Of a stretch of 64,000 nt of DNA, positions 176-46,335 are shown piece by piece (the first letter of the stretch is position 1; each line of letters begins with the position of its first letter). Source of the DNA: Armatimonadota bacterium (GTDB lineage Bacteria > Armatimonadota > UBA5829 > DTLH01); contig JBDKUN010000022.1 in assembly GCA_039679675.1 (NCBI GenBank), positions 11,403 through 75,402 of the forward strand, given 5' to 3'. The notes below the pieces were generated by a model. The model was not told the origin of the DNA and searched no databases. It saw nothing but the letters and a program-made list of their open reading frames with translations. The position numbers were made by a program, and so were the translations under genes.

Positions 176-769
176 ATGAAAAGATTATTCGCCATAATGA
201 CAGTCCTAATAATCGTCGCAGCAATTCCGGTTATGGGACAGGCTCAAGATGAGGGATCCAAGCCGCCTCCTGAGATTCCTGCACCGGCTGGAGCCACCGT
301 TACGACGGAAATGAACGTCACAAGAGATCAGATAATGGATCTTCTCCCCATGTATCTCAACCAGTCCTACCCCGACCTGCAAATCGACCCAGAAAAGCTG
401 GATAAGGCACTTGGCACGGTCGAGCGTGTGCAGTTTGCCGAAATGAAGCTGAATGGGAAGTATACGGCCGCCGATACGCTCGCGCTTTTCGAGAAAAAAG
501 TCGACGGCAATCGTGTTATTTACAACTGCGGCAAAGATACACCTGAATCCGGGATGCTTATCCTGGCGCTGCCGCAGAACAGCGGCTATTTCGCCGTTGC
601 GATAAAAGCCGAGAAGAACAAAAGCAATAAGACCACCGGCGCGGAAATAAAAGCGATAAGGATATCCGGCTGTCCGGACATAGCTAAAGTTATAGAACTA
701 ATCGCACCGGCAATTCCGCAAGTAATAGGTAAAGGTTTCGGGGAATTCACTTGCGAATTGCTGAAATAG
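176..769 (+). CDS. Secreted hypothetical protein (possibly DUF4252-like), paralog of next gene
   Basis: GAGGAG RBS before ATG 176; signal peptide MKRLFAIMTVLIIVAAIPVMG; shares PEIPAPAGAT-x2-TE-x-N with next ORF. Confidence 0.75.
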   Translation: MKRLFAIMTVLIIVAAIPVMGQAQDEGSKPPPEIPAPAGATVTTEMNVTRDQIMDLLPMYLNQSYPDLQIDPEKLDKALGTVERVQFAEMKLNGKYTAADTLALFEKKVDGNRVIYNCGKDTPESGMLILALPQNSGYFAVAIKAEKNKSNKTTGAEIKAIRISGCPDIAKVIELIAPAIPQVIGKGFGEFTCELLK

Positions 770-34929: not shown

Positions 34930-36534
34930 CTATAAATCCAGCTCAGTCTGCTCGCCTTTTCTTACGAGTTTCTTCCCACCGCCGCTTTTCAGCGAGTAAC
35001 CTCTGGGAAAATCGAACTCTTTTTCTTCCTGCAGTTCCTTTATAGTGCGTATTTGCAGCTTAGGTATCTTGCGCCCGCTTGGAGAGTCGAAAAACCCCAA
35101 TTCCTCGGCGCTGTCGTACATCCCTTTGGTCGGTGTCTCAAGGCAGATGAAAAACCCCATCGCGGCTTTGTCTCTTTCGATTACGTGAGCGAAGTCCCGT
35201 ATTACACTTGGCGTCAGGTGGCCGCCTTTCACCTGGCAGACCGCCCACTGGAGGTTGCCCTGCAAGTCCTGGAAGTAGACTTTGCCGTCTACGCCTCTGT
35301 CTCCTACTTTGTCCGGCTGGGGAACACCAGCCACAAGCCCGACTGCCCATATCTCGAACTGTTTCGGGCTTTCTTCAAAGAGTTTCCGTGCAGAGTAGGC
35401 GTCTTTCGGGTCTCCGAGCACATCATAGTCCTTCCCACGCTTTAGCTCAAAGTCCTTTGCGAGCCTGCTTATCATAAGATCGATGGCAATAAATGTAATA
35501 TCGATACCAATCCAGTGTCTTTCGAGCTTTTCGGCAGCTACAACCGCCGTCCCGCACCCGCAGAACGGGTCGAATACTATGTCACCAGGGTTGGAAGAAG
35601 CATTGATTATTCGCTCCAGAAGCGTAAGCGGCTTTTGAGTGGGGTAGCCCATACGTTCGGCTGCATGCGCGGAAATCGGTTGAATATCATCAAAAATATC
35701 CTGAAGTGCAATTCCTTTGACTTCATCCAAGAACCGTTTGTATCGAGGCATACCACTGTTTTGAGGCCAATAGATGCGACCTGCCTCATCAAGTATTTCC
35801 AGTGTTTCGATTTTATACTTCCAGTGATTACCCTTAGTTGCTGGGTCAATCCCGCGCCAAGGTTGACCGGACGATCCATTACGAGTTCCAGCAGCAGTAA
35901 GATCACTAAGGGTATATCGACGGCCGTCAGTATCTATATGGCGGTAAAATTTGCTAATATATTCTGAAGTATAGGGTGTGTGTTGGGCATTCCATATGTG
36001 TGGGATGCCTTTTGCATAAAATAGAATGACATCATGAACCGGCCCATACCTTTTTGCCGAACTGTGTGCACTTGTTCGTTTCCATATGATCTCATTTCTA
36101 AAATGTGCTGGACCAAATGTAACGTCGAGCAATATCTTAAGATAATGACTTGCAGCCGGGTCACAATGGAGATAAAAACTTCCGGTAGGTTTCAGTATCC
36201 GGTGCATTTCCATAAGGCGCGGGGCCATCATGATGAGATAAGCCATCATTTCACTCTGGCCGAGGATTCTGTAGAGAGATTCCATCAGGTCAAAGAGCTT
36301 GGCGTTGCGAGAATCATCGAAAAACTCCTCGTAATGCCGCTTGCTCCACTGCCATGTGTCCGTAAAGGCCGTAATCTGCGCTTGGTTTTCGTCTTTCTTA
36401 GCCTGCTTGAAGAGCACATTGTAGTCTCTTGCAGAGTTGAACGGAGGGTCAAGGTAGATAAAGTCCACTGACTCGTCCGCCATGTGCTCACGCATTATCC
36501 AAAGGTTATCGCCGTAGTAGAGGGTGTTCTTCAT
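34930..36534 (-). CDS. Beta-class N6/N4 DNA methyltransferase fused to an Mrr-like C-terminal domain
   Basis: YLDPPF, YPTQKP, DPFCGCGT; C-terminal QFEIWA..DRGVDG..QVKGG. Confidence 0.9.
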   Translation of the reverse strand: MKNTLYYGDNLWIMREHMADESVDFIYLDPPFNSARDYNVLFKQAKKDENQAQITAFTDTWQWSKRHYEEFFDDSRNAKLFDLMESLYRILGQSEMMAYLIMMAPRLMEMHRILKPTGSFYLHCDPAASHYLKILLDVTFGPAHFRNEIIWKRTSAHSSAKRYGPVHDVILFYAKGIPHIWNAQHTPYTSEYISKFYRHIDTDGRRYTLSDLTAAGTRNGSSGQPWRGIDPATKGNHWKYKIETLEILDEAGRIYWPQNSGMPRYKRFLDEVKGIALQDIFDDIQPISAHAAERMGYPTQKPLTLLERIINASSNPGDIVFDPFCGCGTAVVAAEKLERHWIGIDITFIAIDLMISRLAKDFELKRGKDYDVLGDPKDAYSARKLFEESPKQFEIWAVGLVAGVPQPDKVGDRGVDGKVYFQDLQGNLQWAVCQVKGGHLTPSVIRDFAHVIERDKAAMGFFICLETPTKGMYDSAEELGFFDSPSGRKIPKLQIRTIKELQEEKEFDFPRGYSLKSGGGKKLVRKGEQTELDL

Positions 36535-36576
36535 ACTGATTTCTTAGCTCTCAGCGCTAGATTTTCCTTGTCGAAT

Positions 36577-36868
36577 CGCGAAATACGCGAAGAAGCACGA
36601 AAAACGCGAAAAGGGATTGGCGGAGATATGCACAATCAGCCCCTTCTCACCTTGCGGGAGAAGGTTGGGACGAGGGGTATTCCGGCAGCAAAGCTGCCGA
36701 TGGCCGGCACGGAGACCGGCCACTACTTCCGTTAGTGTATGTCGATAGAAAAGCGGAAGCTGGCGCTTCCGCACTCTAAAGAGATTGGTGGAGACTCGTA
36801 GCATAAGAGCAGATGCCGTAACCCTCTACCTTCCGCGTTTCCCATAATTCCGCGTCTCCGCGGTTCAA
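36577..36868. repeat. Repeat cluster upstream of the methyltransferase
   Basis: CGCGAAA unit; CCTTCTC..GAGAAGG hairpin; 36699-36726 is the reverse of 12209-12236; 36750-36797 is the reverse of the 1533 and 8020 units. Confidence 0.8.
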
Positions 36869-36891
36869 AAGCTGATAGCCATACCTGGTAC

Positions 36892-36992
36892 AAAAAAAAG
36901 CCCGCCGGACTACCATCCAACGGGTGGAGGGTTTTGCCCTCCGTCGATTTTGCCACAACACTTTAGGAAGGAGAAAAAGATGTTTTTCTCTG
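36892..36992 (-). ncRNA. Candidate sigma-54-dependent sRNA
   Basis: Begins ~12 nt after a -24/-12 site; three hairpins, the last followed by U8. Confidence 0.55.
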
Positions 36993-37003
36993 GTAATAGG
37001 TTT

Positions 37004-37019
37004 TGCAAGATTCGTGCCA
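37004..37019 (-). promoter_or_regulatory. Sigma-54 (-24/-12) promoter
   Basis: TGGCACG-AATC-TTGCA matches the consensus exactly. Confidence 0.75.
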
Positions 37020-37124
37020 ATTCGCTTGTTTTCCAAAAAATTAGCCCAGCAATCTTGCAGGGTATTGTGATGGGTTGTTACACATGTTATCGGCAGTATA
37101 AAACGAGTTCATTAGCCCGTTTTA

Positions 37125-38594
37125 TTACGTAATCAGCAGTAAATATATAAAAAGAAAAATGACGCTGTTGTGGATTGCGTGCGCAACCATCGATGGAACG
37201 AGTGAGCGGCGGGTCTCAAACAGCAAATTGAAGACTGAAGCTATGGCAAATATCGGCAGGAACCCCCCAGGGAACGGGTGAATAATCGCAAAAGCCGCTG
37301 ATGCCAGGACCAGAGCTCCCGCAATGCTCATCCGCACGCGGAGAGCGTTATATAACATCCCCCTGAAGAATATCTCTTCAAAAAACGGAGCGAGCACCGA
37401 GCCGAGCAGTATAACGACAAAAATCACAGCGGTATTCCCGGACAGGAACAGCGGCACTACCTCGTTTACCGGGGTCTCGACTCCACGGAAGAATATTCTG
37501 GAGAGAATATTCCACACTAATCCGGCAACCAGAAGCAGCGGCAGCAGCGCGCAGTAACCCGCAACTCCCCAGAGGATATTCATCAGGAATTTCCGCGTGG
37601 TAAGCCCTATAACATCCAGTTTGCGGCCCTGCTGCTTTAAGAGGTGATACACCACTCCAAGCCCGATCAGGCCGGTTGCAACGATGAGCCCAAACTCCAA
37701 AATTACGATATAAAAAACCCGGGAATCAGACGGCATCTTTTCCAGAGTAGAAGACAAAGATATTCCGGCGATCAGCCCCAGCGCAATCGAAGAAAGCAAA
37801 TAAGCAATAAAACCCGTGAAAAGCACCTTAGCTATTGGCGTCCTATCTTCCGGTTCCTCTGCGGGGTGTTCGATCCACTTGCGCCCGTTCATAGCAAACA
37901 GGATTATGAAAACCACTCCGGCGAGTCCGGCAAGGATAATCGCCAAAAACAATCCGCCCGTAGCCATAAACGATACGGCTGCTCGCTCCTTGCCTGCTGA
38001 GATAACCTGGCGAGCGCGGTCAAACTGATTAACTCGGCTGAACAAATGCTCCAGCGCAAACGCCCTTGCGGGCCCAAGGTTCAGGATGTTTATCCTCTTT
38101 GCGTATTCATCGGCTTTATTCGCGGTCAATTTTCCTGCGTATACATCGCGCCACATGGCAGCTTCGCCCCGCAGCTTTCGGACATCCTCCGGCTGAAGGC
38201 CCTTCAGCGTTGCCGGAGCCACCAATTTGTCAAAATACTCGACTGCGCCTTCTCTGTGAAGCTCATAAGACATAACACCGGCGCGGCGGATAGCTGCCGG
38301 ACTGGGACCCTTTGCCGCTTTTTGGTAAAAATCAAACGCCAAAGGAAGCATCTGGCCGGATTTCTTTGTACCGGAAAACGTGACTCCTTTTTCCAGCGCA
38401 TATTGGGTGTAGAAATAGAGTTTGATCTGAAGATCGCCGTAGTACATACTGGACATGCTTTCTTCAGTCTGTTGAGTGTGTAAAGCATTTCCGCTTTCGA
38501 GCTGAGACCTTAGAAATATAAAAAGAATCAACGCAAAAGCAACTATGGCGTATCTGAGCCAGACCTTTTCCCGGTTTTCGGTGTTTAGTTCCAT
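37125..38594 (-). CDS. CPBP (CAAX protease-like) intramembrane glutamic endopeptidase
   Basis: EEIFFRG, FAIIH, HAIHN; N-terminal helical extracytoplasmic region. Confidence 0.9.
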   Translation of the reverse strand: MELNTENREKVWLRYAIVAFALILFIFLRSQLESGNALHTQQTEESMSSMYYGDLQIKLYFYTQYALEKGVTFSGTKKSGQMLPLAFDFYQKAAKGPSPAAIRRAGVMSYELHREGAVEYFDKLVAPATLKGLQPEDVRKLRGEAAMWRDVYAGKLTANKADEYAKRINILNLGPARAFALEHLFSRVNQFDRARQVISAGKERAAVSFMATGGLFLAIILAGLAGVVFIILFAMNGRKWIEHPAEEPEDRTPIAKVLFTGFIAYLLSSIALGLIAGISLSSTLEKMPSDSRVFYIVILEFGLIVATGLIGLGVVYHLLKQQGRKLDVIGLTTRKFLMNILWGVAGYCALLPLLLVAGLVWNILSRIFFRGVETPVNEVVPLFLSGNTAVIFVVILLGSVLAPFFEEIFFRGMLYNALRVRMSIAGALVLASAAFAIIHPFPGGFLPIFAIASVFNLLFETRRSLVPSMVAHAIHNSVIFLFIYLLLIT

Positions 38595-38650
38595 GTCACT
38601 CCATCAAAGTAAAAGTTCTACAATCTCTATTACACGCCATACCAAAGACT

Positions 38651-45219: not shown

Positions 45220-46335
45220 GTGCGTAATTTTGTTCTTCTCACTGTAATACTACTAGGTTTTGCATCACTTGCGGTTCCGGCAAATGCCGGTTGGAACGTT
45301 TTGAACTTGTCCCAGCCAGAAAATAGCTTTGCTTGTGCGAAAAATATTAACGGCAATCAGGTAGTAGGATCAGTTTCTATTGGAAACGGCTGGCCGGGGT
45401 GGACGCATGCTTCTATGTGGACTCAGGGAAGCACAGGGTGGATCGATCTTAACCCCAGCGGCTCAGCGTATTCTGTAGCTAATGGTACGGATGGACAGAA
45501 GCAGACTGGTTACGCTTTTATAGGTGACAATATGCATGCAATACTCTGGACCGGCTCATCTAAAAATTATGTAGACCTGAACCCTTCAGGGGTCTTAGGT
45601 TCCAACGCGGAATCTGTCTACGGTAATCAACAAGTCGGAGGTGCTATGTATGACACCTCGTGGTCCGGAGTTAGCTTCGCCAGCTTATGGTATGGTTCAG
45701 CTGAGAGTTGGGTGAACCTAACACCGAAGGACTCAGGCGACTCGCGTGCTTATGGCACTGATGGAATCCATCAAGTAGGCTACGCTACGTTTAGCGGTAG
45801 TAATCATGCTGGAATATGGAGTGGAACTGCGGAAAGCTGGAGTGACCTGAACCCCATATCCGCAATAAGTTCACGCGCCTACGCTGTCCGAGGTAATCAG
45901 CAGGTAGGCTACGCCACCACTGCAGATTACTGGCGGCATGCGAGCTTGTGGAACGGCACATCTGATAGCTGGGTAGATTTGAACCCAGCCGCATCCGTCG
46001 AATCCAGCGCACTGGCATTATCATCAGGATATCAGGCCGGCTGGTTCAATACAGATGGTCTTGAGCGGGCATCCATATGGGCTGGGTCTGCAGACAGCAT
46101 GGTCGACCTTCATTCGCTTCTCGCTTCTGATACATACTGTAAGTCGTTAGCAACCGGCATTTCCATACAAGGCTCGGATATATTCGTGTCAGGATATGCA
46201 TATAACAGTTCAACGAACAAAGAAGAAGCAATTCTGTGGCATTATACATCTGATGTTCCCGAGCCTTCGGGCATCCTTTCGCTACTCTTCGGCCTTGGTG
46301 GATTCGGCGGCATGATGCTGCGGAGGAAAGATTAA
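45220..46335 (+). CDS. PEP-CTERM protein with HAF-like repeats
   Basis: GGAGG then GTG; signal peptide; ~44-aa repeats (HAxLWxG..WVDLNP..QQVG); VPEPS-TM-RRKD. Confidence 0.92.
   Translation: MRNFVLLTVILLGFASLAVPANAGWNVLNLSQPENSFACAKNINGNQVVGSVSIGNGWPGWTHASMWTQGSTGWIDLNPSGSAYSVANGTDGQKQTGYAFIGDNMHAILWTGSSKNYVDLNPSGVLGSNAESVYGNQQVGGAMYDTSWSGVSFASLWYGSAESWVNLTPKDSGDSRAYGTDGIHQVGYATFSGSNHAGIWSGTAESWSDLNPISAISSRAYAVRGNQQVGYATTADYWRHASLWNGTSDSWVDLNPAASVESSALALSSGYQAGWFNTDGLERASIWAGSADSMVDLHSLLASDTYCKSLATGISIQGSDIFVSGYAYNSSTNKEEAILWHYTSDVPEPSGILSLLFGLGGFGGMMLRRKD

Follow-up and report, generated by a model that had tools for sequence, protein, structure and literature searches.

A conserved sigma-54-preceded small RNA unit of Armatimonadota and its complementarity to PEP-CTERM messenger leaders

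A 64,000-nucleotide (nt) stretch of an Armatimonadota genome (contig JBDKUN010000022.1 of assembly GCA_039679675.1, positions 11,403 to 75,402; hereafter 'the window') carries on its minus strand, at positions 36892 to 37019, a compact unit made of a sigma-54 promoter, a region predicted to specify a small RNA (sRNA) of about 100 nt with an anti-Shine-Dalgarno tract, and an intrinsic terminator. Promoter, seed and terminator are conserved as a unit across one bacterial class, the genome encodes two copies of RpoN together with sigma-54 activators, Hfq and exosortases, and complementarity between the seed and the ribosome-binding sites (RBSs) of genes coding for PEP-CTERM proteins is both enriched in this genome and phylogenetically conserved. 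The explanation that we favour on balance is an independent sigma-54 base-pairing sRNA gene, member of a class-confined family, that would pair with a subset of PEP-CTERM messenger RNAs (mRNAs) and repress them. The parts of this reading differ in strength. That the unit is a real sRNA gene is very probable, and its dependence on sigma-54 only a little less so; an action by RBS pairing is likely, a role of PEP-CTERM mRNAs as the principal targets is somewhat probable, and repression rather than activation is put forward tentatively. An earlier note, made from the letters of the window, had offered two readings, a sigma-54-driven, trans-acting sRNA that pairs with RBSs and an antisense partner of a small open reading frame (ORF) on the opposite strand; the former is now well supported and the latter is not supported.

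A promoter-to-terminator unit conserved in one class

All parts described in the earlier note were found in their places (Table 1): the minus-strand promoter, there written TGGCACG-N4-TTGCA, which is the same string as TGGCAC-N5-TTGCA, the 5′ hairpin, the anti-Shine-Dalgarno tract, the GGAGGG-CAAAA-CCCTCC hairpin and the U8 terminator, and likewise AGGAAGGAG with the ATG at 36980 and its 50 codons on the opposite strand. The 5′ end of the predicted RNA was placed 12 nt downstream of the -12 C (36993 ± 2), following the known spacing of sigma-54 promoters, and its 3′ end at the end of the U8 run (36892). The seed is built in a particular order: anti-start-codon, anti-spacer, anti-Shine-Dalgarno CUCCUUCC and then a 3′ box, GUGUUGUGG, at 36961..36953. 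In this two-part arrangement, CAUCUUUUUCUCCUUCC..GUGUUGUGG, the first part mirrors start codon, spacer and Shine-Dalgarno, so that the invariant seed complements AGGAAGGAGAAAAAG-AUG and then runs into a second box. The 3′ arm of the 5′ stem-loop doubles as the 5′ part of the seed, and CUUCCUAAAGU is unpaired in the minimum-energy fold.

TGGCAC-N5-TTGCW has its sole zero-mismatch match in the whole window at 37019..37004(-), and with up to one mismatch the pattern occurs three times, against 2.1 ± 1.5 expected from shuffles. The terminator stem has 10 pairs, six of them G-C, and encloses a loop of 4, with C and T8 coming next; eight terminator-like sites lie within 5 kilobases (kb), against 5.2 ± 2.7 expected, i.e., there is no local enrichment. 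For the 102-nt RNA the predicted folding energy is -35.9 kcal/mol (z = -2.68), which one of 200 shuffles matched. Since the promoter and terminator motifs taken by themselves do not exceed chance, the reality of the element rests on the conservation of the whole unit, which we traced in 55 distinct copies.

A blastn search with a 181-nt query gave matches in 24 of 41 related genomes, often in several copies each, with the promoter and the first ~70 nt of the RNA as the shared core. Scanning ~186,000 species genomes for the exact pattern returned 30 stretches, nearly all of them in metagenome-assembled genomes titled Armatimonadota or unlabelled; the five located in other phyla had no promoter and look like chance matches. 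Alignment of 40 distinct copies revealed that the GG, A, C and TGC positions of the -24/-12 elements are invariant and the seed nearly so. Downstream of the nearly invariant block, GAGAnAAACATC-TTTTTCTCCTTCCT(T)AA-AGTGTTGTGG, come a hairpin that varies, a CCCG...CGGG terminator, a T-run and GTAC. The region of the middle hairpin is variable and hard to align, both here and in the alignment of 55 copies.

From the 40-copy alignment we built a covariance model, R1. Its structure was supplied by hand because RNAalifold recovered little from a plain MAFFT alignment (seven pairs only, three of them inside promoter DNA). R1 scores the window copy (36888-37019) at 113.1 bits with an E-value of 2.3e-23, and in the loci collected it finds 79 matches, 55 of which are distinct. 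It matches 31 of 40 related genomes, with one to five copies in each, often in tandem; three-copy tandem arrays of complete promoter-to-terminator units are present at G019:C2, G026:C19 and G037:C71. In an even sample of the phylum (151 genomes), R1 matched 11 of the 14 genomes that belong to the class of the window and none of the 137 that do not.

Of the 55 distinct copies, 51 have GG-N10-GC, 46 the strict TGGYAY-N5-TTGC, 50 CTCCTTC and 40 GTGTTGTG. Covariation among homologues, which the earlier note had named as a check, is evident in the terminator helix: 90.5% of cells are paired, five of nine pairs carry compensatory changes on both sides, and the covariation score of 0.201 (0.097 when shuffled) was reached by none of 500 shuffles, in an alignment fitted to the hand-supplied structure and thus biased in favour of that structure. 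The 5′ stem-loop is paired in 81-89% of cells with almost no covariation, since the invariant seed forms its 3′ arm and prevents it from covarying. In the same class, the more distant families f4 and f5 have shorter versions that retain the promoter, CUCCUUC and the terminator and are devoid of the GUGUUGUG box.

No Rfam family reached its gathering score in the window or in seven loci with family members, so that the Rfam scan proposed in the earlier note assigned the RNA to no described family, and Qrr (RF00378) had no match in the 801-nt region even at E-values up to 10. Two candidates were rejected: narK RNA (RF03032; 19.0 bits, gathering score 43.2) and Pseudomonas P11 (RF00625; 14.8 bits, gathering score 70), whose aligned parts are essentially the letters of the sigma-54 promoter.

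The machinery that such an RNA would need is encoded in the genome, which is 98.5% complete. The earlier note had made its reading depend on rpoN; two rpoN genes are present (329.7 and 303.3 bits, TIGR02395 cut-off 277.35), along with four strong PF00158 sigma-54 activators (E <=1e-42; six weaker matches, with E 7e-8 to 7e-4, were left out of this count), hfq (99.1 bits, cut-off 27) and two exosortases.

Complementarity to PEP-CTERM leaders

We scored duplexes of the 32-nt seed with the -50..+12 windows of 8852 Shine-Dalgarno-led starts in the genome. The best sites lie in leaders of small signal-peptide proteins ending in VPEP...RRR. The six best PEP-CTERM targets all exceed the TIGR02595 cut-off of 16 (19.1-29.3 bits), and four of the six are also over the cut-off of PF07589; one contains an FGE-sulfatase domain and two a choice-of-anchor E domain. 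Their energies lie between -37.1 and -27.5 kcal/mol; across the genome, the 1% point is -25.7 and the 0.1% point -30.6.

For the enrichment test, one start per ORF was chosen without reference to the sRNA, leaving 3695 ORFs with a Shine-Dalgarno-led start, 34 of them PEP-CTERM-like. These account for 4, 6 and 8 of the top 10, 20 and 50 duplexes (Mann-Whitney p = 9e-10), whereas 12 control seeds with CUCCUUCC kept and flanks shuffled had means of 0.17, 0.42 and 1.17 (maxima 1, 1 and 3). A strong Shine-Dalgarno alone therefore does not account for the enrichment. In the best leaders, a CACAACAC-like box complementary to GUGUUGUG lies a few bases upstream of the Shine-Dalgarno. The seed of a second sRNA-like unit of the same genome (G000:C56, see below) placed 0, 0 and 0 PEP-CTERM genes in the top 10, 20 and 50, and that of a look-alike at C20 1, 2 and 3.

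Similar boxes were found in other genomes of the group of 41. The pattern ACAACAC-N0-15-GGAGAAAA has 48 matches against 3 for its reversed control. Most are sRNA genes read antisense; five coincide with RBSs of ORFs that are 60 amino acids (aa) or longer, namely four PEP-CTERM genes and one truncated homologue. The pattern CACAACAC-N1-6-GGAG-N4-10-ATG, its spacing chosen to exclude that of canonical sRNA genes, has 28 matches against 6 in the control. Fourteen ORFs of at least 100 aa start at this motif: six, spread over five genomes, code for PEP-CTERM proteins, three for homologues of the FGE-sulfatase/PEP-CTERM target, and five are unrelated, which is about the control rate. Of 26 homologues of the FGE-sulfatase/PEP-CTERM target, eight have ACAACAC upstream, and all eight come from genomes with a GUGUUGUG-box sRNA; the motif is absent from the homologues in G039, where the sRNA has no such box, and in G025, which has no sRNA match. 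Exosortase was found in 38 of the 41 genomes; the three that are without it, all of genus g10, are also without an sRNA match, and all 31 sRNA-positive genomes have it.

A number of observations weigh against an sRNA that acts on PEP-CTERM mRNAs under sigma-54 control. Complementarity is limited to part of the PEP-CTERM genes: the 34 have a median of -21.5 kcal/mol, many are near the genome median, and some top-ranked duplexes belong to other genes. Leaders are common to paralogues and orthologues (the C31 pair, the C42 pair, C56/G030), so fewer independent events underlie the counts than the figures suggest. The genomes negative for both exosortase and sRNA represent one genus and thus one evolutionary event, and six sRNA-negative genomes still have exosortase. 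Given that the f4 and f5 variants have no GUGUUGUG box, the link to PEP-CTERM may hold only for the order with f1, f2 and f3. The best activator scores 426.3 bits against the PrsR equivalog TIGR02915, below the cut-off of 502.6, and no upstream motif is common to the promoter of the sRNA and the sigma-54 promoters of PEP-CTERM genes, flgB and others. In family f2 the gene pfk constantly follows ~70 nt downstream on the same strand, and a cis effect is possible there. Metatranscriptome contigs (three runs of one wastewater study, the best of which contains 5% of the sampled words) reach, over 35500-38600, a 164-nt piece of the methylase gene and repeat pieces at 36570-36875, not 36892-37019, which is uninformative either way; the contig matches are partial and mismatched because of dispersed REP-like repeats.

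Some of these points would suit a real sigma-54 sRNA whose main targets lie elsewhere, either a broad anti-Shine-Dalgarno regulator or a regulator of other mRNAs; the enrichment would then be a by-product of leader sequences common to paralogous genes for secreted proteins. The core CUCCUUCC is complementary to any strong Shine-Dalgarno, several top duplexes are of non-PEP-CTERM genes, with only ~6 of the 34 PEP-CTERM genes in the top 30, the f4 and f5 variants keep the anti-Shine-Dalgarno part alone, and the leader of one rpoN gene (C28) is in the top 0.9% at -26.0 kcal/mol. However, the shuffled-flank seeds retain that same core and lose the enrichment, the CACAACAC box is independently enriched at PEP-CTERM starts elsewhere and conserved among homologous leaders, and the G000:C56 seed, likewise from a sigma-54 sRNA-like unit of this genome, places no PEP-CTERM gene in the top 10, 20 or 50. 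We consider this alternative rather unlikely.

Another possibility is an RNA that titrates a protein (Hfq, ribosomal protein S1 or another binder of CU-rich RNA) with no base pairing. Sigma-54-dependent protein-sponge RNAs exist in Pseudomonas (CrcZ), and the multiple copies, tandem arrays and invariant single-stranded CU-rich tract of the present family are reminiscent of such a role. Each RNA, however, has one copy of the motif rather than an array of binding sites, and the invariant region is the exact complement of start codon, spacer and Shine-Dalgarno, with matching boxes in mRNA leaders. Titration is, in our opinion, improbable.

Genomic neighbourhood and the opposite strand

The neighbours of the unit vary among families. 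In f1 (G000, G002, G004) it lies downstream of a CPBP/Rce1-like gene; in f2 (L007, L010, L013, L021, L022) the sRNA genes are found in a conserved position, flanked by pfk and by a divergent PPDK_N-domain gene; other copies adjoin YkuD genes. This variation characterises the unit as an independent gene and not as part of a neighbour. Of the explanations that would tie it to a neighbour, the best is a cis-acting leader or attenuator of the downstream gene, which would be pfk in f2 and the DNA methylase gene in the window. At five f2 loci pfk begins ~70 nt past the last terminator on the same strand, and the GTAC after the terminator is conserved. Against this, the downstream genes differ by family, the methylase gene of the window is ~350 nt away from the terminator and beyond dispersed repeats, the downstream ORF in G002 is convergent, the fold offers no alternative anti-terminator pairing, and the tandem arrays consist of complete units, an arrangement that argues against a cis leader. 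A cis role is thus very improbable.

The opposite strand, read as a type I toxin-antitoxin-like pair in which the RNA would be the antisense partner of the small ORF, has in the window a perfect RBS and start (AGGAAGGAG-N6-ATG) in front of 50 codons. This ORF is not conserved: over 40 copies it spans from 4 to more than 113 codons (row L005:1303 took the ORF of a neighbouring copy), eight of the 40 have no start, and the same-genus copy has five codons; nor was a conserved plus-strand promoter found for it. The antisense reading of the earlier note can accordingly be given hardly any weight. Still less credible is a chance promoter-like motif with a terminator that merely ends the upstream CPBP mRNA, one of the grounds on which the earlier note would have dropped the sRNA: promoter and terminator motifs alone are indeed no commoner than chance in the window, but the whole unit is kept in 55 distinct copies in varied contexts, and in f2 the gene upstream is transcribed divergently, which means that the terminator is not merely the end of its mRNA.

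Table 1 Features of the sRNA unit and its surroundings in the window
Feature	Position	Strand	Remarks
Sigma-54 promoter TGGCAC-GAATC-TTGCA	37019..37004	minus	-24 GG and -12 GC, N10 spacing
Predicted sRNA transcript	36993..36892	minus	~102 nt; ends predicted
5′ hairpin GAGAAAAA-CATC-TTTTTCTC (RNA 3′ arm UUUUUCUC)	arms 36990-36983 / 36978-36971	minus	8 nt, 100% complementary
Conserved seed CAUCUUUUUCUCCUUCCUAAAGUGUUGUGG	36953..36982	minus	nearly invariant columns in the 40-copy alignment
Tract CTCCTTCC (RNA: anti-Shine-Dalgarno CUCCUUCC)	36973..36966	minus	
Middle hairpin GGAGGG-CAAAA-CCCUCC	36942..36926	minus	sequence differs among copies
Intrinsic terminator, stem CCCGUUGGAU/AGUCCGGCGGG	stem 36924..36901, T8 36899..36892	minus	
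GTAC straight after the U-run	36888..36891	minus	kept in 34 of 55 distinct copies; unexplained
Imperfect inverted repeat CCTGCAAGATTGCTGGG	37045..37061	minus	candidate regulator-binding site, predicted from sequence
AGGAAGGAG-N6-ATG	ATG at 36980	plus	perfect RBS and start, opens 50 codons
CPBP/Rce1-like gene	37125-38594		PF02517; precedes the sRNA intergenic region
DNA methylase gene	34930-36534	minus	PF01555, C-terminal NA-iREase1 domain PF22722; downstream of the sRNA

The candidate regulator-binding repeat has an equivalent, CCyGnnA-AAAn-TGCnGGG, situated 2-3 nt upstream of the -24 element in most other copies (40 upstream regions compared); in the window copy the repeat is 24 nt further upstream. 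On the other side of the unit, 36535-36890 is a mosaic of short palindromic REP-like units that recur at dozens of intergenic sites of the genome with 87-100% identity.

Proposed regulation, precedents and related units

As we envisage the sRNA gene to operate, sigma-54 RNA polymerase together with a putative enhancer-binding protein would start ~12 nt past the -12 GC, near 36993, and transcription would stop at the intrinsic terminator, at 36892. The resulting RNA would comprise the short 5′ hairpin, the invariant seed, the variable hairpin and a U-tailed terminator of the type bound by Hfq. The U8 terminator and the presence of hfq are as expected of an Hfq-type base-pairing sRNA, Hfq binding itself being a prediction from sequence. 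GUGUUGUGG would pair with the CACAACAC box that some PEP-CTERM mRNAs have in their leaders, immediately upstream of the Shine-Dalgarno, and this pairing would mask the RBS and repress their translation. One signal could in this way turn one set of exosortase cargo on, through sigma-54 promoters, and another set off via the sRNA. At least six other PEP-CTERM genes (C6, C10, C16, C21, C28, C31) and a flgB-like gene (C10) have a TGGCAY-N5-TTGCW promoter upstream. Within 300 nt, a sigma-54 promoter was found for none of the five best PEP-CTERM targets and for seven weaker ones, the numbers being small. A PEP-CTERM-like ORF lies inside the window itself (45646-46332, plus strand; 229 aa, end ...VPEPSGILSLLFGLGGFGGMMLRRKD); at -14.6 kcal/mol it is no predicted target.

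None of the four activators (C10, C13 and two on C33) reaches any named equivalog cut-off, and no activator gene adjoins any sRNA copy in the neighbourhoods compared. One activator and a hybrid kinase adjoin the second rpoN copy (C10). Seed duplexes were unremarkable (14th-78th percentile) for the leaders of all four activators, of the C10 rpoN and of both exosortases. The complementarity of the C28 rpoN leader (G000:C28:191-1603, minus strand; 0.9th percentile) could be feedback or chance.

The closest functional parallel is the Qrr1-5 family of Vibrio (RF00378). As Qrr RNAs are commonly portrayed, the two families share a length of ~100 nt, a sigma-54 promoter, several paralogues per genome, an invariant seed of ~30 nt, an Hfq-type terminator and, on the prediction made here, an NtrC-type activator and pairing at the RBS regions of targets. 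They differ in that the Armatimonadota family, from another phylum, has no match to Qrr in sequence or structure and no adjacent activator gene, and its seed combines an anti-Shine-Dalgarno/anti-start tract with a second box. Qrr RNAs, in the same portrayal, target master regulators, whereas the targets predicted here are mRNAs of surface proteins, with no predicted feedback on the activators. The family is thus a new one of a known functional kind, which resembles Qrr and is not a member of it.

MicA and RybB of enterobacteria, which are sigma-E-dependent, repress abundant envelope proteins by pairing near the RBS. The present family would likewise employ an alternative sigma factor to restrain the translation of secreted envelope proteins; sigma factor, sequences, taxon and targets (porins versus exosortase cargo) are different.

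Sigma-54 control of PEP-CTERM genes is itself not new. The PrsK/PrsR system, in the relevant passages of its description, governs single-gene units with long leaders and was reported for Proteobacteria only (Haft et al. 2006, PMC1569441). Several PEP-CTERM genes of our genome resemble these in their TGGCAY-N5-TTGCW promoters; PrsK/PrsR, however, acts on transcription, whereas the layer proposed here is post-transcriptional, through an sRNA, and the PrsR cut-off is not reached. In Desulfovibrio vulgaris, by the corresponding passages of Rajeev et al. (2011, PMC3333781), an sRNA gene has a sigma-54-dependent promoter bound by the NtrC-type regulator DVU0679, and a separate sigma-54 regulator, DVUA0057, binds PEP-CTERM genes. 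That sRNA is alike in its promoter and differs in adjoining its own regulator gene; the same passages give its function as unknown and draw no link to PEP-CTERM. In the parts of these two papers that deal with it, the regulation of PEP-CTERM genes is described at the transcriptional level only, the 2006 study covering Proteobacteria only (PMC1569441, PMC3333781). It is plausible that the sRNA would add a post-transcriptional layer to this sigma-54/PEP-CTERM theme.

PEP-CTERM proteins are tied to exopolysaccharide and to floc and biofilm formation, and Armatimonadota are a widespread, mostly uncultured phylum. It is conceivable, and we suggest it with reserve, that this multi-copy sigma-54 sRNA family serves as a class-wide post-transcriptional master switch of the exosortase cargo repertoire. 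If so, it would give PEP-CTERM/exosortase systems their first described sRNA regulator and Armatimonadota their first described regulatory RNA family: full-text literature searches, judged at the level of search results, returned no paper linking PEP-CTERM or exosortase to an sRNA and no description of a regulatory RNA of Armatimonadota. The family yields a ready covariance model, a clear marker of the sigma-54 regulon and a testable hypothesis of post-transcriptional control of PEP-CTERM/exosortase surface proteins; the two-box seed and the matching leader box permit compensatory-mutation tests in a heterologous host, with no need to culture the organism.

Related units were noticed in the course of the analysis. 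In the second sRNA-like unit of the same genome (G000:C56:51420-51534, minus strand; locus L141:221-335), to which R1 assigns 41 bits, a sigma-54 promoter (TGGCACAATTTCTGCA) is combined with another CU-rich seed, CAUUCUUCUCCAAAGACGUGAGG, as well as with a terminator and GTAC. The seed CUUCUUCUCCUUUCAAGUGUUGUG belongs to a second sRNA subfamily, which surfaced as antisense matches in the target-motif searches at G003:C31, G021:C25, G019:C61, G004:C151 and G005:C308 (L156, L165, L176, L155/L149, L065); R1 matches it weakly, at 34-42 bits where found. At G000:C20 (locus L109:~235-345, plus strand) a seed look-alike, CUCUUUUCUCCUUUCCAUUCUGUGUUGUGGGG, with no clear sigma-54 promoter seen, is followed by a hairpin and a T-run and stands directly upstream of a small ORF and, by eye only, an apparent HNH-type gene; it may represent a diverged paralogue or else a mimic carried by a mobile element. 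Finally, a perfect sigma-54 promoter, TGGCACGAATTTTGCA, precedes a cysteine-rich, zinc-ribbon-like ORF of ~65 codons at G000:C18:845 (plus strand; locus L110:146-400).

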